A stretch of 64,000 bases of DNA, taken from assembly GCF_044324785.1 (NCBI RefSeq), contig NZ_CP172127.1; one strand, 5' to 3'. Positions 2-58,575 of this stretch are shown piece by piece; position 1 is the stretch's first letter, and every line of letters begins with the position of its first letter. The notes beneath the pieces were generated by a model. That model was not told the origin of the DNA. It saw only the letters and a program-made list of their open reading frames with translations, and did not search any database. Source of the DNA: Escherichia coli (GTDB lineage: Bacteria > Pseudomonadota > Gammaproteobacteria > Enterobacterales > Enterobacteriaceae). The position numbers and the translations under genes are program-made.

Positions 2-1129
2 ATTCAGACGGAACGTATTACAGCCGGAGCTTATGATTACATACTGAAACGTGGTCAGGGGATTAACAGCACTAACTGGTATCTGATTAGCAGAAAAGAC
101 ATTCCTGTACCACAACCTGAAGCTGTACCGGAAAGCCATGATAATAATTTGCGTCCTGAGGCAGGTAGCTATGTTGCCAGTATTGCTGCTGCAAATAATC
201 TGTTTGTAACGAATCTGTATGAACGACAGGGACAGGAGTTGTATATCAGCCACATGACAGGAGAAGAAAATGAAGCAGGTATCTGGATGTATAATAAAGG
301 AAAACATAATCGCTGGCGTGACAACAGTAGTCAGCTGAGAACCCGGGGGAATAGCTACGTTGTGTTAATAGGGGGAGATATAGCTCAGTGGAGCCTGAAT
401 GGTACCGATCGCTGGCATACAGGTATGATGGCTGGCTATGGTCATAATAATAACAGTACGAATGCCCTGAGCACCGGATACCATTCGGAAGGAAGAATGA
501 ATGGATACACAGCGGGTCTTTATGCAACATGGTATGCCAATGATGAAACACACAATGGTTCTTATCTTGATAGCTGGCTGCAATACAGCTGGTTTGATAA
601 TCATATAAATGGAGAACGGCTGCCTGCTGAGTCATGGAAGTCAAAAGGGTTTACGGTATCTCTGGAAGCAGGATATTCATGGAAGGCTGGAGAGTTTACC
701 GACAATTACAAGGGAAGTCATGAATGGTATGTTCAGCCGCAGCTTCAGGTTGTCCGGATGAATGTAAAATCAGACAAATATCATGAAAGTAACGGAACCA
801 GTATTGAAAATACCGGTAACGGAAATATTCTCACCCGCCTGGGAGCAAGAACATGGCTTACCAGCAAAAACGGTAAAAATACGCGGTATGCGGTTCCGTT
901 CAGACCATTTGTGGAGGCACACTGGTTGCACAATAGTCGTGTTTTCGGCACCAGTATGAATGGTGTAAGTATATACCAGGATGGTGCGCGTGATATCGGA
1001 GAAATAAATGGTGGTGTTGTGGGAATGATAACACCAGAAGTAGCATTCCGGGCTGATGCAGGCATTCAACTTGGAGAACATGGATACCATAATACATCTG
1101 CCATGTTGAGTGTGGAATATCGTTTCTGA
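2..1129 (+). CDS. Autotransporter outer-membrane beta-barrel (translocator) domain protein, C-terminal portion; 5' end outside window
   Basis: Reading frame open from nt 2 to stop at 1129 with no stop codon; Gly/Tyr/Trp/Asn-rich alternating composition and terminal aromatic motif ...SVEYRF typical of autotransporter beta-domains; family by recall. Confidence 0.6.
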   Translation: MQTERITAGAYDYILKRGQGINSTNWYLISRKDIPVPQPEAVPESHDNNLRPEAGSYVASIAAANNLFVTNLYERQGQELYISHMTGEENEAGIWMYNKGKHNRWRDNSSQLRTRGNSYVVLIGGDIAQWSLNGTDRWHTGMMAGYGHNNNSTNALSTGYHSEGRMNGYTAGLYATWYANDETHNGSYLDSWLQYSWFDNHINGERLPAESWKSKGFTVSLEAGYSWKAGEFTDNYKGSHEWYVQPQLQVVRMNVKSDKYHESNGTSIENTGNGNILTRLGARTWLTSKNGKNTRYAVPFRPFVEAHWLHNSRVFGTSMNGVSIYQDGARDIGEINGGVVGMITPEVAFRADAGIQLGEHGYHNTSAMLSVEYRF

Positions 1130-1150
1130 TGTGTCGGTAATGACTCCAAC

Positions 1151-1654
1151 TTATTGATAGTGTTTTATGTTCAGATAATGCCCGATGACTTTGTCATGCA
1201 GCTCCACCGATTTTGAGAACGACAGCGACTTCCGTCCCAGCCGTGCCAGGTGCTGCCTCAGATTCAGGTTATGCCGCTCAATTCGCTGCGTATATCGCTT
1301 GCTGATTACGTGCAGCTTTCCCTTCAGGCGGGATTCATACAGCGGCCAGCCATCCGTCATCCATATCACCACGTCAAAGGGTGACAGCAGGCTCATAAGA
1401 CGCCCCAGCGTCGCCATAGTGCGTTCACCGAATACGTGCGCAACAACCGTCTTCCGGAGCCTGTCATACGCGTAAAACAGCCAGCGCTGGCGCGATTTAG
1501 CCCCGACATAGCCCCACTGTTCGTCCATTTCCGCGCAGACGATGACGTCACTGCCCGGCTGTATGCGCGAGGTTACCGACTGCGGCCTGAGTTTTTTAAG
1601 TGACGTAAAATCGTGTTGAGGCCAACGCCCATAATGCGGGCTGTTGCCCGGCAT
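1151..1654 (-). CDS. insB: IS1 transposase InsB frame
   Basis: ORF-track protein ...[46 protein letters not shown] matches IS1 InsB by recall; normally expressed as InsAB' by frameshift. Confidence 0.85.
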
Positions 1655-1848
1655 CCAACGCCATTCATGGCCATATCAATGATTTTCTGGTGCGTACCGG
1701 GTTGAGAAGCGGTGTAAGTGAACTGCAGTTGCCATGTTTTACGGCAGTGAGAGCAGAGATAGCGCTGATGTCCGGCGGTGCTTTTGCCGTTACGCACCAC
1801 CCCGTCAGTAGCTGAACAGGAGGGACAGCTGATAGAAACAGAAGCCAC
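1573..1848 (-). CDS. insA: IS1 InsA
   Basis: 91-aa protein [43 protein letters not shown]... (zinc-finger, HTH) matches IS1 InsA by recall. Confidence 0.85.
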
Positions 1849-2320
1849 TGGAGCACCTCAAAAACACCATCATACACTAAATCAGTAAGTTGGCAGCATC
1901 ACCCGTTCATTTTCTGAGCCTGTAAAACATGTGGTGATATAGTCTGAGAGCATAAAAGTTGAGATTCTGTGTATCAAGTCCTGTCTTGGCACCGAATGAA
2001 TATTGCTTACGAAGCCCCTTCATGCTTTCCTTGAGAACAATAATTTTATCTTTATGTGAATCTCATTTTTTATAATGATGTCAGATGATTGAAATGCTAA
2101 ATTATATCTGAATCAACTTTTCCTTTGCTAAAGGTATAGAAATAACTGCAAGGCTGTATTTTGTAATTGCCAATTTAAAAATGTCAATTTGTTTTTAATT
2201 ATGTTTTTGTAATAAGTTTGAAGACACAAAAAATAATATAATAACAAAAATCCTCCAGCCTTGTAGGCCAGAGGATAAAATACTTAATTGAGGAAAACAT
2301 CAGGGAAAAGTATTTCTGAC

Positions 2321-3505
2321 TTAACTTTCCCGGCTGGAGAGTGAATCAATGTAATCAGCGTACCATTGCATCATTTCACGGCGGCCATCGAGATACAGGG
2401 CATGATTATAGGTACCCCTGATGGAATTTTTATCCACATGAGCTAACTGCATTTCAATCCAGGCAGAATTAAAGCCCTGTTCGTGCAGAATGGTACTCAT
2501 GGTGTGACGAAAACCATGACCGGTTGCCCTGCCATCGTAACCGATACGTTTGAGCACCATATTGATGCTGGCTTCGCTCATTGGCTTGTTGATATCACAA
2601 CGTCCCGGAAAAACCAGCCGGTATTGCCCGGAGAAAGTTTTGAGCTGCAGCAGAATGTCAGTGGCCTGTCGTGACAGTGGTACGACATGTTTACGTCGCA
2701 TTTTCATGCGGCTTTCAGGGATTGTCCACAGTGCATTATCAAAATCAATTTCTGACCATTCAGCGGACCGTAGCTCAATGGTTCTGAGACCTGTCAGAAG
2801 CAGCAGATTTGTCGCCATGCGGGTAACAGGACTGCCATGATACTCAGCGAGCTTCCGGAGAAAAACAGGGAGCTCATCTGCTCTCAGGTGGGGGAAATGT
2901 GCAGCTTTTGGCGCCGCCAGCGTACTGGTCAGTTCAGATGCCGGATTGACAGTGGCTCGTCCGGTGGCGATGGCATAACGAAAAATCTGATTACAGTATT
3001 GACGCACCTTACGAAGTTTTTCCAGCGAGCCACGTTTTTCTATGCGGCGCAGAATTTCCAGCATTTCCAGCGGGAGGATATCCGTAACGCTTCGTTTGCC
3101 CAGATACGGGAAAATATCTTTATCCAGCGCTTCCAGTACGCTTCTGGCGTAACTTTCAGACCATGACAAAGATTTATGCTGGTGCCATTCCGTAGCGAGG
3201 GCATGGAACGTATTGGTGGCAGAGATTTTCTGAGTGAGTTTTTCCTTTCGCTTCTTTTCGCCCGGGTCACCACCTTCGGAGATGATTTTTCGGGCATCGT
3301 CGCGTTTGATTCTGGCCTCAGCAAGGGAGACGTCGGGATAGACGCCGAGGGCCAGTTTTTTCTCTTTTCCTGCTATCCGGTATTTAAGCCGCCAGTAGCG
3401 GGCACCCGTGGTTTTTACCAGCAGATATAAACCACGTTCGTCAGAGAGTTTATAGTCTTTTTCTTTAGGTCTGGCTGTTTCGACCTGTCTGGCTGTAAGT
3501 GCCAT
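2321..3505 (-). CDS. Tyrosine recombinase, P4-type phage/island integrase
   Basis: N-terminus MALTARQVETARPKEKDYKLSDERGLYLLV typical of P4-like integrases; C-terminal catalytic region with HGFRHT...R...Y; start set at ATG 3505 (MALTAR), not the longer track ORF; lies 177 bp from a tRNA-Phe 3' fragment. Confidence 0.85.
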   Translation of the reverse strand: MALTARQVETARPKEKDYKLSDERGLYLLVKTTGARYWRLKYRIAGKEKKLALGVYPDVSLAEARIKRDDARKIISEGGDPGEKKRKEKLTQKISATNTFHALATEWHQHKSLSWSESYARSVLEALDKDIFPYLGKRSVTDILPLEMLEILRRIEKRGSLEKLRKVRQYCNQIFRYAIATGRATVNPASELTSTLAAPKAAHFPHLRADELPVFLRKLAEYHGSPVTRMATNLLLLTGLRTIELRSAEWSEIDFDNALWTIPESRMKMRRKHVVPLSRQATDILLQLKTFSGQYRLVFPGRCDINKPMSEASINMVLKRIGYDGRATGHGFRHTMSTILHEQGFNSAWIEMQLAHVDKNSIRGTYNHALYLDGRREMMQWYADYIDSLSSRES

Positions 3506-3569
3506 ATGGGGGCTCCTGAAACTGACTGAACACAATGAGCCCCCACCGGGGCCCCCAATGAACGCTTGA

Positions 3570-14008: not shown

Positions 14009-14836
14009 TCTATGGCGCTACTGGCACCATAGTACAAAAAATGAGCGATGGTGCCACTGACACCACGGTATAAAAAATGAGCGATGGTGACGCTGGCACC
14101 ATAGTACAAAAAATAAGCGATGGTGCCACTGGCACCATAGTACAAAAAATGAGCGATGGTGCCACTGGCACCACGGTATAAAAAATGAGCGATGGTGCCA
14201 CTGGCACCACGGTACAAAAAATAAGCGATGGTGCCACTGGCACCACGGTATAAAAAATGAGCGATGGTGCCACTGGCACCACGGTACAAAAAATAAGCGA
14301 TGGTGCCACTGGCACCACGGTACAAAAAATAAGCGATGGTGCCACTGGCACCACGGTACAAAAAACGAACGATGGTGCCACTGGCACCATAGTACAAAAA
14401 ATAAGCGATGGTGCCACTGGCACCACGGTACAAAAAATAAGCGATGGTGCCACTGGCACCACGGTACAAAAAACGAACGATGGTGCCACTGGCACCATAG
14501 TACAAAAAATAAGCGATGGTGCCACTGGCACCATAGTACAAAAAATAAGCGATGGTGCCACTGGCACCACGGTACAAAAAATAAGCGATGGTGCCACTGG
14601 CACCATAGTACAAAAAATGAGCGATGGTGCCACTGGCACCACGGTATAAAAAATGAGCGATGGTGCCACTGGCACCACGGTACAAAAAATAAGCGATGGT
14701 GCCACTGGCACCATAGTACAAAAAATGAGCGATGGTGCCACTGGCACCACGGTATAAAAAATGAGCGATGGTGACGCTGGCACCATAGTACAAAAAATAA
14801 GCGATGGTGCCACTGGCACCATAGTATAAAAACGAA
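14009..14836. repeat. Tandem array of ~22-23 copies of a 36-bp unit, each containing a 17-19-bp palindrome (A)TGGTGCCACTGGCACCA(T) plus an A-rich spacer
   Basis: Directly visible periodicity of 36 bp across ~830 bp with minor unit variants (cggtac/tagtac, ataa/atga/acgaa, gtgacgctg). Confidence 0.95.
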
Positions 14837-40617: not shown

Positions 40618-40977
40618 ATGGCGATGACTCAGGGGACAAAAGCGGGGCTGGTCCTGAAGGGCGTTAAGGTGGCCGGCATGTGGCTGTCGGGCCTTATTGC
40701 CATGATGATTCTGGCCCTCCTGGTGGCTGATACGGGCATGCGGCATACGCAGGAAGTGGAAGCATTACGGCTCTGGCTCCACGAGACACGTTTCGGATGG
40801 CTGGGGTGGCGGGTGTGCCTCTACGGTGCGCTGGCATGGGGATGCCGGAAAATCTGGCGTGCGCCGGGGTTCAGACCGGAATACCGCCGTCCCTTTGCGC
40901 GGATTTGTCTGGTCAGTGCTCTGTTTGCGTTACTTTGCGAGTACAGCATTTTTTTCGGACCGGGGGCTGAACTGTGA
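40618..40977 (+). CDS. Membrane protein
   Basis: SD GGGGAG before ATG 40618; TM helices. Confidence 0.55.
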   Translation: MAMTQGTKAGLVLKGVKVAGMWLSGLIAMMILALLVADTGMRHTQEVEALRLWLHETRFGWLGWRVCLYGALAWGCRKIWRAPGFRPEYRRPFARICLVSALFALLCEYSIFFGPGAEL

Positions 40978-42476
40978 CCACGAATAACTATCTGGAACAC
41001 TTTCTGACCCTGCTGGGCTGGCTGGTGAATAACGGCCTGTGGGATCTGCTGACGGGGACGGGGCTGTTTGCCCTGCCACTGGCCTTCAGGGTTATCGGGA
41101 TCTGGCTGAAAGTGCGGGAAGAGGGGGCGGATGAGGGAAATAAAGGGATGCTCTCACTGCCCCGCATTGAGCATGCCCTGTATGGTGCATTTTTTGTGAT
41201 GGTGGCCTGCTGTGTGCCGCTGGTACAGGTGACGCTGGACACGCTGAAATTTGATCGCAGCCGTGCCCAGACCTGCGGTGTGTGGACACCGAAAGCACCC
41301 GGTGATACCGGGTACAGCGGGGTGATCAGCAGCCTGGGTGACAGGACAGCGGCCGCCCCGGTGTGGTGGGTGGTGGTGCATAAACTCTCCAAAGGTGTGA
41401 CGCAGGCTGCTGTGGCGTCCATTCCCTGCCGGCCGGATATACGGCAACTGCGTTTTGAGGTGCAGCGGACATTCATTGCGAACCGGGCGCTGGCCGACGA
41501 GCTGCAGGACTTCACCAACGACTGTTACTCGCTGGCGCTGTATCAGTGGAAGCAGCGTGACCAGGGGATGACGAAGGACAGGAAGCTGCTTTCGGATATC
41601 AGCTGGATTGGCAGCAGTACGTTCATGCAGGGTGACTACGGGACACTGCAGTCGAAAATGCCACGTGCGGCATTCCCGTGGAATAGCGCCCGTGACAGCG
41701 GCCGTCCGGATACGGGACGGGGGGGTTATCCCACATGCCGTGAATGGTGGAGTGACAGTAGTGTCGGGCTGAAGAAGCGGGTGACAGAGGAAGTTGATGA
41801 AGGACTGTGGTTACGTATTTCGGCGGCAATGAAAATGCTGGGGAACGCGCAGGCGAACTACCAGGAGGAAATCATCAAACGTCTGGTGAGTCCGGCGAAC
41901 CTGACCCTGTCACAGGGGGGGGAGGTGTACCGTGGCTATGGCGGTAATGCAGATATGACGGCGGCGAATGCGGTCACGCGTGCAGCAGGCACGGCGGGTT
42001 CTGCCGTTGCTAGTCTGGCAGCGTTTCCGGCGTTTGATGCGATGCGGCAGGCGCTGCCGATGGTGCAGAGTATTCTGCTGATGGCGGTGTATATCATGCT
42101 CCCGTTGATTCTGGCGTTTGCGGCGTATGAATTCAGCACGCTGATCACACTGACGTTTGTGGTGTTTGCACTGAATTTCCTGACGTTCTGGTGGGAGCTG
42201 GCGCGGTGGCTTGACAGCTGGATGCTGACGGCCTTGTACAGTTCGGACACGCATTCCCGAGTGAACATGATGGGGCTGCAGAACACGTCGGATGATATCA
42301 TCATGAATTTTGTGATGGGCACGATGTTTCTCGTATTACCGGCGGTGTGGCTGGGAGCATTATCCTGGGCTGGAGTTAATATCGGACAGGCTATTTCTGA
42401 GGGATTCAATCGAGCAGGGCATGTTACACAACAAGCAGGCCAGCATGCTGGAAGTTTTGTTAAAAGAATAAAATAA
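40974..42476 (+). CDS. traG: TraG-like (N-terminal domain type) conjugal transfer membrane protein
   Basis: GTG start; multiple TM helices at both ends; last gene of T4SS block. Confidence 0.75.
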   Translation: MTTNNYLEHFLTLLGWLVNNGLWDLLTGTGLFALPLAFRVIGIWLKVREEGADEGNKGMLSLPRIEHALYGAFFVMVACCVPLVQVTLDTLKFDRSRAQTCGVWTPKAPGDTGYSGVISSLGDRTAAAPVWWVVVHKLSKGVTQAAVASIPCRPDIRQLRFEVQRTFIANRALADELQDFTNDCYSLALYQWKQRDQGMTKDRKLLSDISWIGSSTFMQGDYGTLQSKMPRAAFPWNSARDSGRPDTGRGGYPTCREWWSDSSVGLKKRVTEEVDEGLWLRISAAMKMLGNAQANYQEEIIKRLVSPANLTLSQGGEVYRGYGGNADMTAANAVTRAAGTAGSAVASLAAFPAFDAMRQALPMVQSILLMAVYIMLPLILAFAAYEFSTLITLTFVVFALNFLTFWWELARWLDSWMLTALYSSDTHSRVNMMGLQNTSDDIIMNFVMGTMFLVLPAVWLGALSWAGVNIGQAISEGFNRAGHVTQQAGQHAGSFVKRIK

Positions 42477-42489
42477 CTACCTGTTTTTT

Positions 42490-42527
42490 ATGGCGATATT
42501 TGTCATGAATATCGCCATATTTTTATT
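42490..42527 (+). terminator. Hairpin terminator after traG
   Basis: ATGGCGATATT-tgtcatga-AATATCGCCAT followed by ATTTTTATT. Confidence 0.55.
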
Positions 42528-42822
42528 CTGGCGTTTTGTAAGGGCTACCACTCCATTCTCTACTATCAATAGGATGATGATCTCGATAAAGAGGATGAAA
42601 GGGATTGAACATCGCTTCATTCGAATCTTTTTCATTTGAATCGCATATATCAGATAAAACAGATGTTAAATAATTGTTTTCTTTCTTATTGACACGATGA
42701 ACCGTGTGTGGACCAGAATCCGGTAAAACCGCACAGATAGCCTTTTTCAGCAGGCGGCTGAAAGTCCATGGTGTGTCAGAGGTTTTGCAACTCCACATTG
42801 CTTTTTCTGTTTCATTGGTCAT
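42523..42822 (-). CDS. Hypothetical protein
   Basis: SD GGAGG 6 nt before ATG 42822 (MTNETEKAMW...); AT-rich. Confidence 0.45.
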   Translation of the reverse strand: MTNETEKAMWSCKTSDTPWTFSRLLKKAICAVLPDSGPHTVHRVNKKENNYLTSVLSDICDSNEKDSNEAMFNPFHPLYRDHHPIDSREWSGSPYKTPE

Positions 42823-43118
42823 CGCGGCCTCCTGTAAGTGGATAATCATCCTGGTACTATCATACGTGTTGTATGATAAATGTTCAATGCTTGCGAATCC
42901 AGGTATAATTGTCCGATTTTGCACCTCCTGCTGTACAGCTTGTGATGTGGGCCAGGATGTGACTCTGCATGTCACAATAGCTCCAGGAACTTCAGTCTCA
43001 GCCCTGCTGAACATTGTGTGATTAATTTTTAAAAATGAGAAAAGAATAATCTCTCTTTTTAGTCGTCCGGCTATGCCTTAATTCTCCCTGAGTCAAAACC
43101 TGTATCAGGAGAAGCTGA

Positions 43119-43691
43119 ATGAAAATATCAAAACTGGTTGTTGTGGCTACAGTATGTTCCACGCTTAGTGCATGTTCCGTGGAAGAGATGGCTGCTGTGA
43201 ACAAGAAAATCAGTGACGGTGCATTTGCTGTGACGAAAGCGCTCAATGGGGGAACGGGCTACGCGGATAATGGTATGCCGATCCTTAACAAGCAATTGCC
43301 GCCGGCGCAGGATAAACGCGAAAATGTTATTGATGTCCCTGTTGATGTGGATACCGCAGCAGGCCGACTGAAACGCTATTACAAGTTTTACTCGAATGAT
43401 GAGGTAAATGCGATCCGCAATAACGGCACAACTGACGGAAAATGGCAGGCAAGTGCGATTATTGACAATGGGCATATCTGGGATGCGATGCCGGGCAGTT
43501 ACTACAAAATGGGAGGAAACTGGCGTAAAGGCAGCTTTGATGATCACCTGACGATTGAGGTGGAAAAGAACGGTAAGGGAAGCCGGGTCTATATCACCTA
43601 TGCTTCAGCTTCTCAGGCGCATTTGCAGGCAAGTTCTCTTGAGCCTCTGTTTAAGCGAGTGAAGGATGTGGCTGAAGGAAAGGTTCGTTGA
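43119..43691 (+). CDS. Putative lipoprotein
   Basis: Signal peptide with lipobox LSAC; SD AGGAGAA. Confidence 0.6.
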   Translation: MKISKLVVVATVCSTLSACSVEEMAAVNKKISDGAFAVTKALNGGTGYADNGMPILNKQLPPAQDKRENVIDVPVDVDTAAGRLKRYYKFYSNDEVNAIRNNGTTDGKWQASAIIDNGHIWDAMPGSYYKMGGNWRKGSFDDHLTIEVEKNGKGSRVYITYASASQAHLQASSLEPLFKRVKDVAEGKVR

Positions 43692-43915
43692 TGAGCACGC
43701 CACGGGCAAGCCCTTATGGCTAAAGGAGAGGGAGATTGCCCGTGGCGGCCCACTTTTTTTAATCATTTTTTTACCATGTTGTCCAGTATTTTTACATAAG
43801 TGAAACATCTGGTGTTGTTTTCTGTTCATCGTGCTGGAAGTTACAGGGCTTGTAATTGAACGGGGAGAGATGTAATTTACGTGCGCAAAAATTTTACTCA
43901 AGGGGGAGAAAACCG

Positions 43916-44179
43916 ATGAAACCGAATATCCATCCTGAATACCGTACTGTGGTGTTCCACGATACCAGTATCGATGAGTACTATAAAATTGGTTCGACCA
44001 TCAAGACTGAACGTGTGATTGAGCTTGATGGTGTCACCTATCCGTACGTAACAATTGATGTTTCCTCTAAGTCGCATCCTTTCTACACTGGCAAACTGAG
44101 AACTGTTGCTTCAGAAGGTAACGTGGCGCGCTTTAACCAGCGTTTCGGTCGTTTTGTTGACACCAAAAAAGGCGCATGA
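43916..44179 (+). CDS. ykgM: 50S ribosomal protein L31 type B (zinc-independent paralog)
   Basis: [31 protein letters not shown]... matches RpmE2/YkgM by recall, lacks the CxxC zinc ribbon; SD GGGGAGAAAA. Confidence 0.8.
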
Positions 44180-44301
44180 GCAGAAATCGATCACAGGCGC
44201 TATTGATATGCAAAAGTATTGCTTGAGTGTCTGAGGTCGGTTATTTTACGTTTCACAAGAAAGAAGCACTTAAACAGAAACTCACAGTCCATATTCCTTC
44301 A

Positions 44302-44325
44302 TCCCCGGTTACGGGGATTTTTTTT
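44302..44325 (+). terminator. Rho-independent terminator after ykgM-like gene
   Basis: TCCCCG-gtta-CGGGGA followed by T8. Confidence 0.6.
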
Positions 44326-44898
44326 AGCTGTTGTCTGGGGAGGGAAGGGGGCTGTGTCGGGCTGGGAGCTGTAAGGCTGCGATTGTCCGGGTGATGTCTG
44401 AACATGCGGTATGTTTGCGTTAAACAAGGGGGGAGTATGTGGATACTGATTTTCTGGCTTTCAACACCATATTCAGTGTCATCCAGTGTTGCCAGACAAC
44501 CAACGCTTGCTGTTCATTCTCAGGAGTTCGCTGGCTGAGATGAAGAAGGTGAATGTCGGAGAACTGACCCTGAGGGGGATCTGTGTCTCAAAAGAATAGT
44601 GGGGTAGAGGGAGCGAACCAGGCTGTTTTATCAGGATGTGATTCTGGAGAGTCCGCTCGCCGCAGTCCGGCGACCGAACGGTAGTGAGCGAGCGGACGAG
44701 GAAGCGGAACGTCACAGTTCTTTCATAATGCACCTACGCTGTGTGGTTACATGGGTAAAGGATGAATATCACCATTCTATATCTGTTTCTGAAAAACAGT
44801 TTCGCTTGTTGCCTGTCATTGCCGGCTGGCGTTAGCATACAGAGGCGGTATTATCCCCTGTGATATTACGGGTTATTTTGTTTTGCTCTGTAAGACCT

Positions 44899-44924
44899 GG
44901 CCAGCTATTATGCTGGCCTTTTTT
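44899..44924 (+). terminator. Hairpin plus T-run
   Basis: GGCCAGC-tattat-GCTGGCC followed by TTTTTT. Confidence 0.45.
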
Positions 44925-44929
44925 GTGGT

Positions 44930-45247
44930 TTATTGTTCGCAGTCCAGCATTGCAAATAATTTTCGTTTCTGTTCCTTCACATACTCAACATCAACAGTAC
45001 AATCCAGATAACTTAACTCATCTTCTGTCCAGGCATTGATGGATTCTTTTATTCGGTGTGTCACATCCGGTGTGAGTATGTCGCGCATTTTCTCAATGGT
45101 ATCCCGGCTTATTTCTCCTCGTGGAGATTCAAGCAGAGGAATTACTGCCTGATGTCCCGGAGGGAGTATAAGACGTAATTCATATTTAAGTGTTTCGTTG
45201 AGTAAACGACAGAAAGCACTGTATTTCTCTTTCCGGGTACTGTTCAT
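44930..45247 (-). CDS. Hypothetical protein (low GC)
   Basis: SD GAGAAGGAA before ATG 45247. Confidence 0.5.
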   Translation of the reverse strand: MNSTRKEKYSAFCRLLNETLKYELRLILPPGHQAVIPLLESPRGEISRDTIEKMRDILTPDVTHRIKESINAWTEDELSYLDCTVDVEYVKEQKRKLFAMLDCEQ

Positions 45248-45342
45248 CGTTTTATTCCTTCTCATTACTGTGCATGGTGTAAGATTAAAGCGTTTTGCAA
45301 AAGATGTACAAGTTGTTTTTATCCGGATTTAATATCATGGAC

Positions 45343-45996
45343 TCACTTTTCTTTTGTGTCAGTGGGTACTGCATTGTTTATTAGCCACGGCAATTGTTGA
45401 TTACCCTGTATTTTTCGGATGTAGTTATCAATAATATCTTTTGTTTCATCACTATTATTATAAAAAGATTCAAGTGTGCATATAAAATCATCATTTAATG
45501 CAGGTAGCAGGATTATGTTTTTTACTGTGAACCGGATATGACGATTACTCAGTGTTTTTAAATAAAGTTTCTTTCCAATAACAGGATTTACATTGAAAAT
45601 ATTGTAACAGATTTCCACTGTGTTTTCTGAAGGTGCGTATAATACGTATACCGGATATTTTTTATGAAGTTTTATCAGGCAATTTATAAAGTCTAAGGAA
45701 TTTGTTTGTTTTGCTTTTTCTCGCATCTTATTTACGTGTTGCGAAAAGAAATATGCTTTTGTAAATATAAAAAGAAAAATAAGCGCAGTGTTTAACAGAA
45801 ATGTGATGGCAATTGTTATAAATAACCATTTACCTGAACCTGTATTAAAGATATGGGATGAAAGATACCCACCTGTCAGCAACAAAAATATAAATAATAA
45901 TGACTGCATTTTTTCCTGGTTGTTTATTGATGATTTCAGACACAGAAATATAACAACACATGCAAAGCTCCAGAAAAATATAACAGCAAAATCCAT
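45343..45996 (-). CDS. Hypothetical membrane protein (3 N-terminal TM helices plus soluble C-domain; low GC)
   Basis: SD AAAGGTGA before ATG 45996; strongly AT-rich relative to ICE backbone. Confidence 0.55.
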   Translation of the reverse strand: MDFAVIFFWSFACVVIFLCLKSSINNQEKMQSLLFIFLLLTGGYLSSHIFNTGSGKWLFITIAITFLLNTALIFLFIFTKAYFFSQHVNKMREKAKQTNSLDFINCLIKLHKKYPVYVLYAPSENTVEICYNIFNVNPVIGKKLYLKTLSNRHIRFTVKNIILLPALNDDFICTLESFYNNSDETKDIIDNYIRKIQGNQQLPWLINNAVPTDTKEK

Positions 45997-46162
45997 ATTA
46001 TCACCTTTTGTCTGACAGTTCATTTGTTGATGCTATCACGATATTCGCGATGCGGTAAATATATCAATATGTTGGTTTATTTGTGTAATACATTATTTCC
46101 CATATGCCATAAATCAGTCTGTTGACGATAGCTTTTTTCTTTTGTTATTCTGTTCCCGCATT

Positions 46163-46478
46163 AACTGTCGCTTCGGCGACCACCAATGTTCCATGAGGCC
46201 TGTGAGGAACGCCTTCGGGTGGCCCATGTCGCTCCGGCGACCACCAATGTTCCATGTGGCCTGTGAGGAACGCCTTCGGGTGGCCCACGTCGCTCCGGCG
46301 ACCACCAATGCTCCATCTGACCAGTGAGGAGCGCCTTCGGGTGGTCAGTTTTACACCTCCGTAGCCTGAAAGGAGCTGTGCGTGCTGATGGGATATGTTT
46401 CCGGAAGTACGGGTAAATCTGCACACCTTTGCGAGCAGATGTCACCACGGTTTACGTGATGATGAAGGCATTCCGGAT
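46163..46478 (+). repeat. Structured ~320-bp element, copy 2 of 3
   Basis: Same three-unit plus hairpin-tail organisation as 17941-18270, with a few substitutions. Confidence 0.85.
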
Positions 46479-47175
46479 TTCGTCCGGTACTTTTACTTTT
46501 TCTCAGCAGACTTTCATAAAAAATGCTTTATGGATCTGCGTCTTAACATATTTTCTGACTTTCCGCATAAGCTTCTTATGACTGTGCGCACGGCATAAGG
46601 CCATTTGAAATTTGGCCGCTTGCGTGTGTACGTGGAGTTTGAAGCAGTGCATGCGTCACTTTTGTCGGCGTTCACGCTGACAAAGTGACGCATGAACGTC
46701 GACTCAACGAACCCGCATAAACAGGCTCTTCACGGGATGTTTTTTAACATTTGAAGAAGTGACCTGACGTGATCGTTTTTTTTCAACTTCATTCTGTTTC
46801 GTAGTGACGTCTCTCCGGTAAAACTTCCGGAAAAACGTCAGTCAACAGAATATCATTGTTTTTTAAGGAGTTTAATGTAGTGAGATGCCGAATCGGCGAT
46901 ATATCTGACAGGCAGATATGTCGGGGGCGACCTTCAGAGGTACAGTTAATTCTGCGGCCGGTTAAACTAACCGGCTTGACACCCCGCAAAACCTGAACAC
47001 TTTGCGTTACCCTGACGCACAGGCACTCACTCACCGAAGGAACGTAACGAAGAACCGTGTCGTCAGGTGAAATGCAGATGAATTCTTCTGTTGTGTTCAC
47101 GGCACAACAGAAGAATTCATCTGTGTTGTGTGCTGCTGTTTTGTTTAGGTCATAGGTCATAAGGAGAATGTACAG

Positions 47176-48081
47176 ATGTCCAGACGTGAGAAATTGCTTA
47201 AAAAGGATCTGGTTGCTCATGTCCGAAAAGAAAAGGGGAGTTTTAAAAAGTTAAGTGACTATACAAGGATTATGCATCGATTCGCTGAAACGCTTGCTCG
47301 TCTGAATGTACAGATTAGTTCTGCTGCACAGTTAAAAGTTCGTCACATTGAATTATATATGAACAGCAGGACGGATGTATCAAAACGAACGAGAGAAAAT
47401 GAAATGTCAGCAATACGCGCGGTTTTACGTCAGGTTGGTAAGAATAAACTTGCCGATCCCAGCCATCCACGGCTGAGTAATAAAGCATTAGGTATTTCAG
47501 GTGAGAGTCGTAAAGGTACGAAAAGTCTGATTACAGACGATCGTTTTCGTGAAATTCTTCAGCGCATTGAACAAAAAGATAAAGGACTCGCTGCAACGGT
47601 TAAATTGTCGCGTTATCTTGGTCTGAGAAATGAGGAGGCCATTCAGTCCGCCAAATCGCTCAAAACATGGAAACAGGCATTAGAACGGGGAGATGAAAAA
47701 TTACGTGTTATTTTTGGTACGAAAGGCGGTCGTGAGAGAATGACCACGATTGTTGACAGAAATAATGTTATTGAGGCTGTTAATTATGCTATTAAATATG
47801 CCGGTGAGCATGACGGGCGATTAATCGACAGAGGTAATCTTAAGTCTGCAATGAATTATTATCTTAACTCATTGCGTCGTTATGGTGAAATGAAAGGCGG
47901 TGATGAGACACCACATAGTTTTCGTTACAGTTATGCCGCAAGTGCAATGAAATACCATATTATGAATGGTTACAGTTATCATGAAGCGCTTGCATTAACA
48001 TCTATGGATCTTGGTCACGGTGACGGCAGAGGACGTTATATCGAGCAGGTATATTGCCAGTTGTTAGGACATGAAGAATAG
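47176..48081 (+). CDS. Tyrosine-recombinase/integrase-like protein
   Basis: SD TAAGGAGAA before ATG; candidate catalytic residues R (LGLRNEEA), HxxR (HSFRYSYA), Y (GRGRYIEQVY); family by pattern only. Confidence 0.55.
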   Translation: MSRREKLLKKDLVAHVRKEKGSFKKLSDYTRIMHRFAETLARLNVQISSAAQLKVRHIELYMNSRTDVSKRTRENEMSAIRAVLRQVGKNKLADPSHPRLSNKALGISGESRKGTKSLITDDRFREILQRIEQKDKGLAATVKLSRYLGLRNEEAIQSAKSLKTWKQALERGDEKLRVIFGTKGGRERMTTIVDRNNVIEAVNYAIKYAGEHDGRLIDRGNLKSAMNYYLNSLRRYGEMKGGDETPHSFRYSYAASAMKYHIMNGYSYHEALALTSMDLGHGDGRGRYIEQVYCQLLGHEE

Positions 48082-53412: not shown

Positions 53413-56328
53413 TTACTGAGTCAGTTTTTTTATCAGGTCGTGAATTTTATCACCTGAAAACTGGGTCATGAAAGTTATCTTTATGGATTTACTGATTTGT
53501 TCGAAGAGTTTCTGTGCATGTTTTATTTTATCGCGTTCTTCATGTCTGAGTTCACGTTTGCCATCAACATTTTTGGTTTCAATAATAAGGTTCAGATAAT
53601 CACCCTTTGACGTGTTTACAACATAAGCGAAGTCAGGGGAGTAAGTGTATCCTCCCGCTACAGGAATTTTTATTGAATTTTTGGGGATCTTTGTGAAGAC
53701 AATGACTGACCTGACCTCACCCTCTGTCATATTGAGTTTTTCAAGTTCTGAATCATAAAATACTTCTTCAAAAAGATAAGAGTCCAGTGGAGGGCTTGTA
53801 TTATCCTGTAAAACGCCAAGATCACTTGACAATACATCAGCAAGATAACCGCCGTCTGCATTGGTGAATTTCGTGGGATGGACAGTTCCTGATATTACAT
53901 TATACCCAAGGCTGAATTTACTGAACGAGTTATTAAGCAAATACTTGCTGAAACCAGATTTAATTTTTCTGATTGTCTGAATGTTAAGGTATTCAGTTAT
54001 ATTTATGATGTCTTTTATATCACAAAAAACCTTATGCATGGTGTCATGTTTGACAAAAATAGTCTGTGATAATTTATCAAGGAATTCACGATAGCTCATT
54101 GTGTTTATTTTGTGAAAATTATCCTCATCAACACTGAGAATGCTTTTCGACATTGCCGTATCATTATGGATATAAATTCTTTCAATACGAGTATGAGCAC
54201 CGGATTTGGTAAATCTGTCTGCTTCTTCCAGCATAAACGCTCTGAAAAGGGATAAAAACTCACGTTCACTTTTTATTTTATACTCAATCACGACCTTTTG
54301 ATTGATCAAGTCCCATAGTTCTTTCAGCTCACTGAACTTACCAACACGCATTTTAGTGCGTCTTTTTCCATCAGAGGCTTTTTTTATTTTGCCTGGTTTC
54401 ACTCCTGCAGGAAATGCTGCCGGATATCTGGCTTTTAAGCGGCTATAGGCATCTGAATCTTTGAAGTTATCATTATCATCAATGATCTCATCACCAAAAA
54501 TTTCATTCAAGAGTGTTCTGGAGGAAAGCTCCGGATATTGAGACAGGATTTTATCCTTAAGCTCCTGAGTAAACTTACCTGGAACAGTCTCTTTGAAAGA
54601 ACTATCGTTGATCTCTTTGACAAGAGAATCGACAAAATCTTTTTCTGTAAAATCAACATAATAGTTGAGGGTAAAATTGCGGTCTTTCACACGACACATG
54701 TATTCATTCACCGGAAGACGTAAACCACGCCCTACTTCCTGAAGTTTAGATGTGGTGCTACCGCTCGAACGGAGCTTACAAATCTGAAAGACATTTGGGT
54801 TATCCCATCCCTCACGCAACGTCCATTTAGAGAAAATGAAACGGCGAGGATTTTCTAAAGACAATAGAAGCTCTTTATCATGAAGGATTTCGTTGATTTC
54901 CTGCTCAATTTTATCATCTTTATCACTATTATCTTTTGAAAAATAACCACCATGAACAGAAGATATATCCTTAACAGTTTTTTCAAGGTAGTTTCTGTAA
55001 AACTCATCTTTTTCTGTTTTTAACAGTTCATTTGCTTCTGCCAAAACGTATTCTTCGAACTTAGTTTTCAGGCTTCCTGCAATATCATTACCATCACGAT
55101 AGCCTTCAATGTCATCAATGAAGAAAAGAGTAAGAGGTTTTATGCGTGGCCTTTGTGTCAGATACTCTTTTTCTAACTTAAAGTGTTCTTTGACAGCTTT
55201 ACGTATCATGTTATCAGCAAGTGTCTGATCGTAAGAATAGGGGTTTATCGAACTACCAATTTTTAGCTCAATACCATTACTCAACACTGCTGTATTCTTA
55301 TTTAAAGCATCAAGAGTTAAATCATGGATCGCACTATGCGTCTTAGATAGTGATTCACCTTTGGCTAACTTAAAAATTTTTTTATTATTATTTTCGTTCA
55401 GTTCAAATGTAGCTTCTTTTCCGTCAGATTTGACCAACTTGAGGTTGGCATTACCATCACCAACTATATCCTCAATGTATGCATCAATACCTTTAACAAG
55501 ATCTTCATTGAAGGCATCTACGGCTGTAAGACGATAAACTAAGTTCTTATAGCCTTCACTAAAGGTTGCACCATAGCGGATGATATATTGGGCATTAAAT
55601 TTTTGAATATGTTCCCATGTCTTTTTACCAGTAGGAAATTTATGAGGCTCATCAATGATAATGAATGGTTTTATCGCACTAAGTGCAGAAAATGGGGTAT
55701 CAAACTGATTATTAAGCAAGCCAACATCATAAGTGTCAGTTAAAGACTTAGAGTTAATCATCCCTGAATTGATCACAAGAATGTGTATATATTTCTTATT
55801 GAAATTACTTGCTTCAACAAAATCATGGATAGCTTGAGGTATATACGATTTTGTATTTTTACCCGAACGTTTCTGACTTTCAACAACGTAAGTCTTTAGT
55901 TCACGCTCGTAATCATCTCGAAAGTGTTCTTTTATAGCATCGCTTTTTAAAAAGTTAACGGTTCCGGCTTTGATCGATAGGGTAGGAACAATGATGATAA
56001 ACTTGTTAATACCAAATGATTTGTTCAGGTCAAAAATTGTTTTGGTGTAAGTATAAGTTTTACCTGTACCTGTCTCCATAGAAACATCAATTACGTTGCT
56101 TTTAGCATCGTAATTATCTTTTGAGTGCTCAATACCATTGAACTCCTGAACATTTTTTATGTTGTTGTAGTATTGTTGTTCAGATAGATTCAGTTCTGGA
56201 TTAGCTAACAGGCGAATTGCAACATGATCCGTCTGATGAGGTATGGCGGATACAAAGACATTCATTACCGAATCAACGCCAGCCTTTTGATGAGGTAAAT
56301 TTTTTTCGAATGTGAACCCTTTAGACAT
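53413..56328 (-). CDS. res: Type III restriction enzyme Res subunit
   Basis: 971 aa; helicase Walker A METGTGKTYT, DEAH-like IIIDEPH, motif VI QEVGRGLRL, C-terminal PD-(D/E)xK; low GC; immediately downstream of mod. Confidence 0.85.
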   Translation of the reverse strand: MSKGFTFEKNLPHQKAGVDSVMNVFVSAIPHQTDHVAIRLLANPELNLSEQQYYNNIKNVQEFNGIEHSKDNYDAKSNVIDVSMETGTGKTYTYTKTIFDLNKSFGINKFIIIVPTLSIKAGTVNFLKSDAIKEHFRDDYERELKTYVVESQKRSGKNTKSYIPQAIHDFVEASNFNKKYIHILVINSGMINSKSLTDTYDVGLLNNQFDTPFSALSAIKPFIIIDEPHKFPTGKKTWEHIQKFNAQYIIRYGATFSEGYKNLVYRLTAVDAFNEDLVKGIDAYIEDIVGDGNANLKLVKSDGKEATFELNENNNKKIFKLAKGESLSKTHSAIHDLTLDALNKNTAVLSNGIELKIGSSINPYSYDQTLADNMIRKAVKEHFKLEKEYLTQRPRIKPLTLFFIDDIEGYRDGNDIAGSLKTKFEEYVLAEANELLKTEKDEFYRNYLEKTVKDISSVHGGYFSKDNSDKDDKIEQEINEILHDKELLLSLENPRRFIFSKWTLREGWDNPNVFQICKLRSSGSTTSKLQEVGRGLRLPVNEYMCRVKDRNFTLNYYVDFTEKDFVDSLVKEINDSSFKETVPGKFTQELKDKILSQYPELSSRTLLNEIFGDEIIDDNDNFKDSDAYSRLKARYPAAFPAGVKPGKIKKASDGKRRTKMRVGKFSELKELWDLINQKVVIEYKIKSEREFLSLFRAFMLEEADRFTKSGAHTRIERIYIHNDTAMSKSILSVDEDNFHKINTMSYREFLDKLSQTIFVKHDTMHKVFCDIKDIINITEYLNIQTIRKIKSGFSKYLLNNSFSKFSLGYNVISGTVHPTKFTNADGGYLADVLSSDLGVLQDNTSPPLDSYLFEEVFYDSELEKLNMTEGEVRSVIVFTKIPKNSIKIPVAGGYTYSPDFAYVVNTSKGDYLNLIIETKNVDGKRELRHEERDKIKHAQKLFEQISKSIKITFMTQFSGDKIHDLIKKLTQ

Positions 56329-56330
56329 GA

Positions 56331-58367
56331 TTAGTTCCTTACCACCAAATCTAAATCAATAGATTTTTTATTAGCATAACTTTTTAGTGCTTCATTGAGT
56401 TCCATCTGTTTCGCACTTTCGAAGTTGCTGCCATAAAATACAACTTTGTTAGGGGCAAAGTCTTTGTCTGCATCCAGCTTTTGAAGTAAAGCTTTCAAAG
56501 CCTCACTTGTGAAATTAGGCGCAATTAGATATAGCCGACCATCGCACAAGTGTGCTTTGTAGCCATTAAGGTCAATATCTTCAATTGGTGTTGTTAGCAA
56601 GCTGCCATCATACACGCACCATGTCGTCAATAGAGTGTCATACTGCTCTGGTGTCAATACAGCATCGTCAAAGAAACTAAGATTAGAAAGCGTAAGTTCA
56701 GACTCATCTTTCACTCGAAAATCATGAACTGTTTCAAATATTTTAAATCCCAAATCTCCATTATAATTAGGATTATCTTTTTTCAGCTTTTTTCCTGCCT
56801 TAATAATTCTGTCTTTTGTTATATTGAAGATGGATTTATACCCTTCTTTATAGGCTTGTTTCTTTTTATCTGTTTCTTCATCTAATTGAACACAGATGAA
56901 GTTTCTTTTCCTGCCGTCTTCAATATTTAACTCCAGAATACCATGAGCTGTAGTTCCAGAGCCAGCAAAAAAGTCAAGATAAATGTCTTTATCTTCGGTT
57001 TTTACTGAACCAAATAGTGTTTTTATTAAACTTGTTGGCTTCGGGTAGGAGAAATATCCTTTCCCACCAAAAAGATTTTCAACCTCAACACCACCATCAC
57101 TTTTAGTTGAAATAATTGATCTTAGTAAAAACTCTTCAACTTCATCTAAAAATTTAACCGAACTGGGTTGGGTGTTTTCTGTACTGGCAAACCAAATTCC
57201 ACCACAAATAACGCTACCATCATGTAGTTTTTTGATATCTGCATACTTTCCATCTATTCTTTTTGCAATATGATTAAAAGTGCCTTCTTTCCAACGCCAG
57301 CCTCTGTCTGGGATTTTGACAGGGTTATTAGTCAAAGGGTGCAATACTTCATACGTGGGTCCAAATGAATCTGCATTAGGCCAGCTCATATTAATTTTAC
57401 CCCATGGCCTATAATCTTCGTTCAAACAGTTGTAAAGAGTAATTCCACGATCATATCCGTTGGAGCTGTAGAATTTTTTGAGTTGCTGCTCTGCTTTATC
57501 TAATGGCACCTTCTCCTTTTTTAACTTTTCAATAAACTGATATACATCATCAATACCATCTTTCCGCATTAAAAATTCTTTACTTATTTCGTTATTCTTC
57601 GCATAAGCAAGGATGTACTCATGGATATTACCAATACCCTTATCATTTTTAGGGATACGTTTATTCCATACAATATTTTCTATGAAATTTGCTTCGCCAA
57701 AAATTTCATCACAAATAGTTTTAAGTTGATTTAATTCATTTTCGTCAATCGAAATAAATATCACACCATCTTCACGTAGAAGCTCACGAGCAATATATAA
57801 ACGAGGATAAATGAACGTTAACCATGCGCTATGGCTGCTTGAACCATTCGTGGTAAATTCAAGTATACGTTTAGCCTCATCAAGATCGATACCTGCCAGA
57901 TCAGAAAGCTGTTCAGGTGTAAACTTGCGATCATCGTTATAGGCGAATCCATCCTTACCTGTATTGTATGGTGGATCAATGTAAATCATCTTCACCTTTT
58001 CAGAGTAAGCATTAACCATATGCTTCAATACTTCGAGGTTATCCCCTTTGATTAACAGATTCTGACTGTTTTTGTTCTCTTCACGTTGGTTATGGTCTTT
58101 ATCTTCGGAGAGTAATGTCTTCGGCGGCAAGTTAGCTAACAGACGGGCATAGGATTTACCAAGCCAGTTCAGGCTGTATGATTCTTTGGAGAGTTCAACA
58201 TCCGATGATTTGACGATTTCAAGCAATTTTTCCTGAATGAACGCTCCATTTTTATCAAAACACTGTGGAAAGTTAGCCTTTAAAATCGCAAGCTGTTTAC
58301 TGTTTGTGGTTTCAGTTTCAGAGAAAAGAGTTTCTTTTTTCAGTTGAAATTGGGGTTGTGTATTCAT
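56331..58367 (-). CDS. mod: Type III N6-adenine DNA methyltransferase Mod subunit
   Basis: Motif IV DPPY (MIYIDPPYNTG) preceding motif I FFAGSGTT (beta-class order); SD GGAGGTG 5 nt before ATG 58367; mod-res order. Confidence 0.85.
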   Translation of the reverse strand: MNTQPQFQLKKETLFSETETTNSKQLAILKANFPQCFDKNGAFIQEKLLEIVKSSDVELSKESYSLNWLGKSYARLLANLPPKTLLSEDKDHNQREENKNSQNLLIKGDNLEVLKHMVNAYSEKVKMIYIDPPYNTGKDGFAYNDDRKFTPEQLSDLAGIDLDEAKRILEFTTNGSSSHSAWLTFIYPRLYIARELLREDGVIFISIDENELNQLKTICDEIFGEANFIENIVWNKRIPKNDKGIGNIHEYILAYAKNNEISKEFLMRKDGIDDVYQFIEKLKKEKVPLDKAEQQLKKFYSSNGYDRGITLYNCLNEDYRPWGKINMSWPNADSFGPTYEVLHPLTNNPVKIPDRGWRWKEGTFNHIAKRIDGKYADIKKLHDGSVICGGIWFASTENTQPSSVKFLDEVEEFLLRSIISTKSDGGVEVENLFGGKGYFSYPKPTSLIKTLFGSVKTEDKDIYLDFFAGSGTTAHGILELNIEDGRKRNFICVQLDEETDKKKQAYKEGYKSIFNITKDRIIKAGKKLKKDNPNYNGDLGFKIFETVHDFRVKDESELTLSNLSFFDDAVLTPEQYDTLLTTWCVYDGSLLTTPIEDIDLNGYKAHLCDGRLYLIAPNFTSEALKALLQKLDADKDFAPNKVVFYGSNFESAKQMELNEALKSYANKKSIDLDLVVRN

Positions 58368-58425
58368 AACGCACCTCCAGAATGCACGGAGGTACTTGAC
58401 GCGGAATTTTTATACAGGCATATTG

Positions 58426-58575
58426 TTGCGTTGCGTTGCGTTGCGTTGCGTTGCGTTGCGTTGCGTTGCGTTGCGTTGCGTTGCGTTGCGTTGCGTTGCG
58501 TTGCGTTGCGTTGCGTTGCGTTGCGTTGCGTTGCGTTGCGTTGCGTTGCGTTGCGTTGCGTTGCGTTGCGTTGCG
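58426..58575. repeat. Perfect pentanucleotide repeat (TTGCG)x30; (CGCAA)x30 on the mod-sense strand
   Basis: 150 bp of uninterrupted 5-nt periodicity, 58 bp upstream of mod ATG, preceded on the sense strand by ATG-AAA with SD GAGG. Confidence 0.95.

Follow-up and report, generated by a model that had tools for sequence, protein, structure and literature searches.

The window analyzed here is a 64,000-nucleotide (nt) stretch of the Escherichia coli contig NZ_CP172127.1, and our subject is a gene within it, carried on a mobile element of the integrative and conjugative type (ICE), that encodes a type B ribosomal protein bL31 (here L31B). On the E. coli chromosome, the Zur-regulated operon ykgM-ykgO encodes the counterparts L31p and L36p (bL31B and bL36B), which substitute for zinc-binding L31 and L36 under zinc limitation. 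Swapping zinc-binding L31 for a zinc-free paralog is a textbook reaction to a shortage of zinc, one over which Zur is believed to exert strict control. The open reading frame in the window runs on the plus strand from an ATG at 43916 to a TGA at 44177-44179 and encodes 87 amino acids. Its product matches the NCBIfam model NF002462 (type B 50S ribosomal protein L31) with 121.6 bits (cutoff, 86) and Pfam PF01197 with 87 bits (cutoff, 27), and the match to type B bL31 is far above chance level. The protein has no cysteine among its 87 residues, so that the CxxC...CxxC zinc ribbon is absent. It is identical to K-12 YkgM at 81 of 87 residues (93%; 81.8% at the nt level) and to the bL31B chain of the E. 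coli ribosome structure 6i7v (6i7v_D7) at 64 of 68. Residues 1-18 are the same as in K-12 YkgM; M1, K2, and H6, which contact 5S rRNA in the ribosome (PDB 6i7v; PMC9825181), are unchanged, as is E8, and peptides of the ICE copy would be recognizable by I19/Y23, E32/V34, N74, or D82. By every sequence-level mark of the family, the window gene is an intact type B bL31, and most likely a functional, zinc-independent member of the YkgM/L31p clade of Escherichia.

An earlier, sequence-only reading of this DNA had described an RpmE2/YkgM-type gene that lacks the zinc-ribbon cysteines, adjoins no L36 paralog, and shows no obvious Zur-box palindrome in the 120 bp upstream, and our analysis bears out all three points. 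A tblastn search with YkgO and RpmJ against the whole window gave a best E value of 0.4, elsewhere in the window, and no match adjoining L31B. When the locus is aligned with K-12 ykgM-ykgO, similarity is confined to the coding sequence, from start codon to stop codon; this alignment and the tblastn search rule out a ykgO remnant 3' of L31B. The 23-mer enterobacterial Zur consensus has no match with three or fewer mismatches anywhere in the window. A canonical Zur box upstream was part of what the sequence-only reading had singled out as speaking against it, and none was found: no match to the 17-mer core ATGTTATANTATAACAT with six or fewer mismatches lies in the 430 nt upstream of L31B, and the best match in the nearest 300 nt has seven. 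The whole 64 kb contains no core match with three or fewer mismatches and a single one with four, at 55924. In contrast, the chromosomal ykgM genes of four controls (K-12, the avian pathogenic E. coli [APEC] reference strain, Salmonella, and Enterobacter, the last two being chromosomal fragments filed as "plasmid" with ykgO attached) have a core with two to three mismatches directly in front. When the upstream region of L31B is shuffled, the best core match typically has six mismatches; the real region, with seven, is thus if anything depleted of Zur-like sequence. As a genetic unit, the window gene has neither of the two sequence features of the Zur-regulated operon, having no L36B gene and no Zur box.

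The ICE location, also part of the earlier reading, holds up: Pfam and the RefSeq annotation of the closest complete genome both show an element of the PAPI-1/pKLC102/ICEclc/SPI-7 type. This genome, APEC E19035 (NZ_CP126926.1), is 100% identical to the window over the 651 bases from 43700 to 44350 and 99.6-99.96% identical over the aligned parts; the first 3.7 kb of the window differ. The gene order starts with ParA, an SPI-7-type DnaB, ParB, STY4528/4534 replication proteins, topoisomerase III, SSB, and PilL and continues with TraD, a run of TIGR037xx/PFL_47xx proteins (TIGR03745-03759 and PFL_4669/4703 in the annotation of the closest genome), a conjugative ATPase, TraG_N, a 190-amino-acid lipoprotein, and L31B. 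Next come two small minus-strand open reading frames, STAXI motifs, a gene with an Integrase_1 domain, and ArdA, and the right-hand part holds a type III restriction-modification system, insertion sequence (IS) debris, and an integrase. TraG_N and ParA are also supported by Pfam matches. The backbone from ParA to TraG_N, including TraU-like proteins, is the one known from the PAPI-1/pKLC102/ICEclc/SPI-7/ICEEc2 family; the window differs from that family in that L31B stands outside the family backbone, in that no gene in the ICE stretch is annotated as a relaxase, and in the IS fragments and pseudogenes on its right-hand side. The coordinates of the features are collected in Table 1.

Table 1. 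Features of the L31B locus, in window coordinates
Feature	Position	Strand	Basis or remark
Conjugal transfer gene of the traG_N type, the last large one in the mating-pair module	40974-42476	+	PF07916 (TraG_N), 263.5 bits
190-amino-acid lipoprotein gene, signal peptide and lipobox ...LSAC	43119-43691	+	ICE backbone neighbor
Upstream part of the orphan cassette, 224 nt	43692-43915	+	Homologous over its full length to the region 5' of the O157 orphan
Hairpin: perfect 12-bp stem (43698-43709/43736-43747), 26-nt loop, 6-nt gap, T7	43698-43760	+	
Candidate sigma-70 promoter, TTGTAA (43850-43855)-17-TAATTT (43873-43878)	43850-43878	+	Three-way alignment of K-12, O157 orphan, and ICE
Leader in place of the chromosomal ykgM Zur palindrome	43879-43915	+	K-12 comparison
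Shine-Dalgarno sequence GGGGGAG, 7 nt before the ATG	43902-43908	+	Direct reading of the sequence
Orphan bL31 type B (YkgM-like) coding sequence	43916-44179	+	NF002462, PF01197, RefSeq WP_000803993.1
Terminator-like hairpin ATCCCCGGTTACGGGGAT (44301-44318), then T8, 122 nt past the stop codon	44301-44326	+	

A great many public assemblies contain exactly this L31B protein, and each of the 10 genomic contexts that we read has the same set of left neighbors (TraU-like protein, TraG_N, a small open reading frame, and the lipoprotein). The right side varies among elements, with identity breaking 20-40 nt past the stop codon. The site 3' of L31B is a cargo and defense hotspot; in three contexts (L006, L009, and L012, 6313-9541), an insert with a GmrSD-like nuclease, an EcoRI-type methylase, and CcdAB begins within ~100 nt of the L31B stop codon. 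One genome (GCA_027274645.1) holds two such ICEs, each with L31B. We also gathered 80 diverged relatives of the element via TraG_N (46-76% identity) from Pantoea, Erwinia, Serratia, Xenorhabdus, Photorhabdus, Proteus, Edwardsiella, and others. In the flank covered 3' of traG_N, at most 8 kb and less at contig ends, an L31 gene is missing from all 80. A homolog of the lipoprotein (39-51% identity), a protein for which neither Pfam nor NCBIfam gives a family match, follows traG_N in nine relatives. The lipoprotein gene of Rosenbergiella and Edwardsiella has a TAA stop codon and a short terminator of its own; unrelated genes come next, and after them the STAXI/integrase-like region. Because these flanks have no L31 gene and the right side is variable, L31B is cargo, as had been proposed, specific to its lineage and placed at the left margin of a variable slot, and not part of the backbone; an ancestral backbone gene of the ICE family is ruled out by its absence from the flanks of the 80 relatives.

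The ICE gene does not stand alone. A second orphan bL31B, its sister (WP_000803992.1; P0011, in the same 90% protein cluster), is present in O157:H7 (L093, 5001-5264; L104, 6152-6415). There it starts with GTG and, in the urease island of O157-type strains, follows ureG and is flanked by a TraT fragment and hok/gef. The two coding sequences are 82.6% identical and their products differ at seven amino acids, with I19, V34, and D82 in common. The 224 nt upstream of the ICE gene align with the region upstream of the O157 gene with a local score of 34, against 12 +/- 2 in 300 shuffles, none of which reached 34. The left boundary of this homology falls just past the lipoprotein stop codon, where ICE relatives lacking L31B have a different terminator, and the sequences downstream of the two orphans are unrelated. 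These boundaries delimit a mobile unit of ~0.5 kb, at about 43692-44200, made up of the hairpin, the promoter region, and the coding sequence. A common origin of the two orphans is shown by these sequence comparisons, which place the ICE gene in an older lineage of orphan cassettes that is also found in the O157 urease island. The new observation is thus that the ICE gene is one part of a ~0.5-kb orphan cassette with a sister copy elsewhere in the species.

The sister copy also bears on whether some response to zinc persists, either through a noncanonical or distant Zur site or indirectly, by competition with the chromosomal system. Upstream of the O157 gene are Zur-like 17-mers at -122 (four mismatches, with a perfect right half-site) and at -247 (three mismatches), and the O157 orphan may still be zinc-responsive. 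Zur sites tolerate degeneracy, and the K-12 ykgM box itself has six mismatches to the 23-mer consensus. However, the ICE equivalent of the -122 site is degenerate (eight mismatches by eye), the -247 site falls outside the shared cassette, and neither the worse-than-shuffled best match upstream of the ICE gene nor the absence of close matches across the 64 kb favors a residual site. For the ICE copy, we therefore consider continued zinc control highly improbable.

Selection has acted on the protein while it was carried by mobile elements. Between the ICE gene and K-12 ykgM, synonymous divergence (dS) is 1.75 and nonsynonymous divergence (dN) is 0.036 (dN/dS, 0.02); between the ICE and O157 orphans, dS is 1.33 and dN is 0.037 (dN/dS, 0.028), with synonymous sites saturated in both comparisons. 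Because the upstream 224 nt are shared, the two genes were already orphans when they split, and the second comparison thus gauges selection during life on mobile elements. Among ICE variants, we found six synonymous changes and no nonsynonymous change. Together these comparisons show purifying selection on the L31B protein.

In a three-way alignment, the candidate promoter of the ICE gene is the positional counterpart of the K-12 ykgM promoter, TTGAAA-17-TATCTT, which is the sole promoter-like match upstream of K-12 ykgM and agrees with the consensus at 9 of 12 positions. The O157 orphan has TTGAAT-17-TACCTT, followed by TATGCGGAATTTTCACTTAAAGGGGGAAAACTGTT and then the GTG. Both orphan versions score 7 of 12, under the threshold of the scan, and the ICE version is invariant across 11 ICE copies. 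Between the -10 element and the ATG, K-12 has TATGGTTATGTTATAACATAACAGG, the Zur palindrome, and the ICE copy has ACGTGCGCAAAAATTTTACTCAAGGGGGAGAAAACCG. This leader has no Rfam match, and an Rfam scan of 42400-47400 found no ribosomal-protein leader or riboswitch near L31B, matching only STAXI and EFASI motifs farther 3'. The putative leader RNA folds no more stably than shuffles (z = 0.5), an inverted-repeat search upstream of L31B returned the terminator-like hairpin and no operator-like palindrome, and a k-mer comparison of the upstream region with the remaining ICE found only chance 11-12-mers. The G-rich Shine-Dalgarno sequence recurs in the O157-island orphan as GGGGGAA; the K-12 counterpart, AGG, is weaker. 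The cassette thus appears to have kept the promoter layout TTGnnn-17-TAnnTT in weakened form, lost the operator, and gained a stronger ribosome-binding site; the link from the orphans to the K-12 upstream region, which runs through the O157 orphan, is suggestive.

Of the further signals that the sequence-only reading had assigned to the gene, its own Shine-Dalgarno sequence stands. The terminator, a G+C-rich hairpin with a 7-bp stem, is indeed present at 44301-44318 but lies outside the conserved unit, since ICE variants diverge ~20-40 nt past the stop codon; it is missing from variants with other cargo directly 3' of L31B. The suggestion of a possibly deregulated copy gains support at the level of sequence, in that the -35/-10 layout is kept and the Zur palindrome after the -10 element is replaced.

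These observations support a model in which a cassette with a ykgM-like promoter layout, lacking ykgO and the Zur operator and equipped with a stronger ribosome-binding site, rides on mobile elements and supplies bL31B outside Zur control. The chromosomal ykgM promoter is silent in the presence of zinc-loaded Zur, and its activity rises ~1000-fold without Zur (PMC7297116). The ICE copy would be transcribed modestly without Zur control, possibly aided by read-through from the transfer operon. Its product would then occupy the exchangeable bL31 position on the 50S subunit, at the 5S rRNA contact and the intersubunit bridge B1b; bL31 belongs to the loosely bound ribosomal proteins that can be exchanged, and viruses encode it too (PMC6375957). 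Chromosomal L31p represses translation of rpmE, the gene for zinc-binding L31, via a hairpin in the 5' untranslated region, for which K2, H6, and E8 are needed (PMC9825181), and the ICE product would do the same. The element would in this way bypass the first step of the host cascade (Zur -| L31p -| L31), and ribosomes would shift toward the zinc-free form whatever the zinc status. The size of the shift would hinge on the weak-looking promoter and on read-through past the imperfect terminator at 43698-43760. Cells with bL31B alone are unlike cells with bL31A alone in cold fitness, in frameshifting, and in processivity (PMC7363858). From the sequence and the published work we infer activity of the promoter, Zur independence in vivo, incorporation into ribosomes, repression of rpmE, and any effect on fitness, and with them the proposed effect on host ribosome composition and zinc economy. 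We judge the whole chain, from bL31B synthesis outside Zur control through lowered rpmE expression to a zinc-free shift of the ribosome pool, to be on balance probable.

Several observations weigh against this model. Constitutive bL31B is reported to cost fitness at low temperature and in cyclic growth (PMC7363858). The candidate promoter falls below the scan threshold, so that expression may be low. The ICE and K-12 upstream regions are not significantly similar when compared directly (z = 1.2), and the link between the O157 orphan and K-12 is a 35-nt alignment that was reached by 3 of 300 shuffles. In a survey of 5426 complete E. coli genomes, the ICE-type copy was present in only 35, and the ICE relatives do without L31B. 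Finally, the closest complete genome already has a Zur-regulated ykgM-ykgO, which makes the benefit of a second copy less than obvious: the operon is intact in APEC E19035 at 3956272-3956675, beside fdeC and ecp, and the ICE gene there is thus a second bL31B.

The weak promoter, the rarity of the ICE type, its absence from ICE relatives, and the presence of ykgM-ykgO in the closest complete genome would also be expected of a silent or nearly silent hitchhiker, a captured ykgM remnant with a decayed promoter that rides in a cargo hotspot as a passenger without consequence for the host. The same slot takes unrelated cargo as well, as the GmrSD, methylase, and CcdAB genes show. Such a passenger is hard to reconcile with the selection data, because an unexpressed gene would not keep a dN/dS of ~0.03 over saturated synonymous divergence between copies that were already orphans. 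In addition, the frame is intact, the Shine-Dalgarno sequence is strong, and the protein is identical across the ICE variants that differ at six synonymous sites. We regard a silent passenger as quite improbable.

A different possibility is that the gene is controlled by the element and not by zinc, through read-through from the traG_N-lipoprotein operon or through early expression in recipients from a stretch resembling a leading region; in either case it would tune the ribosomes of donors competent for transfer or of new hosts. L31B is oriented like the transfer operon and follows directly 3' of it. The hairpin between them closes off the upstream gene in terminator-like fashion and marks the left end of the cassette, and its 26-nt loop and the 6-nt gap between stem and T-run suggest an imperfect, possibly leaky terminator with some read-through. 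ArdA and two STAXI motifs lie 2-6 kb 3' of L31B on the same strand, and bL31B replaces bL31A in stationary phase (cited in PMC7297116). On the other hand, related transfer machineries operate without L31B, the O157 sister copy has no transfer operon upstream, and two minus-strand open reading frames separate L31B from the ArdA region. Control by the element in this sense seems unlikely; in our preferred model of Zur-independent expression, read-through is a possible aid.

The O157-island type occurs in 589 of the 5426 complete genomes, so that the two mobile types together account for about 11.5% of them (35 + 589, assuming no overlap); chromosomal ykgM is present in about 5040. Another 356 of the genomes contain no ykgM-like sequence, and some records have ykgM without an annotated ykgO. 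A plasmid search found no plasmid with this copy: the 93% matches among plasmids proved to be F-prime plasmids or misfiled chromosomes, and those from Salmonella and Enterobacter were chromosomal fragments. No phage record contained the cassette, the best phage match being 57.5% identical. In the searchable literature, we found no discussion of an ICE- or island-borne L31B and came across a single mention, the entry "ykgM_2" among the listed genes of a genomic island in strains FDN-4 and EC958 (PMC12054123).

Both orphans are at least 90% identical to the Escherichia clade, whereas L31B proteins of Salmonella, Klebsiella, Citrobacter, and Enterobacter reach at most 77%. This retention within one clade would fit a need to suit Escherichia-type ribosomes and the rpmE leader. 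Chromosomal YkgM of Escherichia is itself 70-77% identical to L31B of these other genera (L102, 4001-4407; L103, 4001-4404; L002, 1875-2278). The chromosomal loci differ as well, with ykgM in the ecp/fdeC region in Escherichia and its counterparts in the ylaC/maa/hha/acrB region in the other genera; Escherichia ykgMO may itself be a separate acquisition.

Three known systems provide useful comparisons. One is chromosomal ykgM-ykgO, which belongs to the same clade (93% identity, with the next genera at 77% or less) and shares with the ICE gene the protein length, the absence of cysteine, an identical N terminus, and a similar promoter layout. The ICE copy differs in having neither ykgO nor the Zur palindrome, a stronger Shine-Dalgarno sequence, unrelated flanks, only 82% nt identity with saturated synonymous sites, and a location on an ICE rather than in the ecp/fdeC region. 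The orphan of the urease/tellurite-type island in O157 and other Shiga toxin-producing E. coli (STEC) resembles it in its orphan state, in ~220 nt of upstream homology, in the promoter layout, the G-rich Shine-Dalgarno sequence, and the substitutions I19, V34, and D82, and in having mobile-element debris in its flanks; it differs in its GTG start, the downstream hok/gef, the possible distal Zur-like boxes, and its occurrence in 589 genomes as opposed to 35. The nearest analog in kind is the group of virus-encoded exchangeable ribosomal proteins (bS21, bL31, bL33, and others; Mizuno et al. 2019, PMC6375957), which likewise combine a mobile carrier with a loosely bound, exchangeable protein under purifying selection and presumably replace the host copy. 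Those are phage genes, mostly from aquatic metagenomes, whereas the present cassette is carried by a conjugative element or island, in a host that already has the same paralog.

Taken by itself, the gene is ordinary. A conserved, operator-less mobile copy, which counted together with its sister occurs in roughly one-ninth of complete E. coli genomes, nonetheless raises a clear experimental question: a copy of the L31 paralog appears to have left the Zur circuit, having become mobile and lost the gating operator while its protein was kept under strong selection. If the gene is expressed, mobile elements could reprogram both the ribosome composition of the host and the rpmE feedback loop, with a bearing on ribosome heterogeneity, on zinc economy during infection by APEC, extraintestinal pathogenic E. 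coli (ExPEC), and STEC, and on the scope of ICE cargo. Conspecific strains that have or lack a Zur-independent L31p would then constitute a natural experiment. If it is not expressed, the gene would be a well-preserved curiosity. A bolder and more tentative idea, to which we give distinctly less credence than to the expression model itself, is that operator-less orphan bL31B cassettes are a selected device of mobile elements that overrides the Zur -| L31p -| L31 switch. Such a device would impose zinc-free ribosomes on the host, silence rpmE, and release zinc from ribosomes at any level of zinc supply, and its carriers, mostly pathogens (APEC/ExPEC and STEC), could be preadapted to host-imposed zinc starvation.

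Other features of the window concern the element as a whole. A tyrosine integrase gene lies at 2321-3535 beside parA, another integrase gene lies just past the window end, and no tRNA gene was found in the window. To the left of parA, the region 149-3535 contains an autotransporter beta-domain fragment, an IS1 transposase, and the integrase at 2321-3535, which is of the P4 type and on the minus strand; this region has no match in the APEC reference genome, and the left junction of the element therefore differs between strains. The right-hand part, 53413-64000, contains the type III restriction-modification system along with fragments of IS3, toxin-antitoxin genes with frameshifts, and a fragment of an autotransporter. 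Self-transmissibility may have been lost in this ICE copy. A PADLOC search of L31B and five neighbors returned no match.

About 2 kb 3' of L31B, just before the Integrase_1-domain gene and ArdA, two tandem STAXI motifs lie on the plus strand at 46166-46287 and 46288-46461 (RF01728; 68.6 and 61.9 bits; gathering score, 40.5), followed on the same strand by an EFASI-like match at 46878-47031 (RF02957; 46.3 bits, below the gathering score of 51.2); the stretch resembles a leading region. At ~44528-44529, the window lacks 26 nt that are present in seven related ICE copies, a deletion that breaks a conserved 62-amino-acid open reading frame (L003, 6522-6710) with no family match. Finally, the replication and partition part of the ICE contains a 36-nt tandem repeat at 14012-14832 (unit ATGGTGCCACTGGCACCACGGTACAAAAAATAAGCG; 22.8 copies, 91% matches), across which the window and NZ_CP126926.1 align uncleanly, possibly reflecting a difference in copy number.

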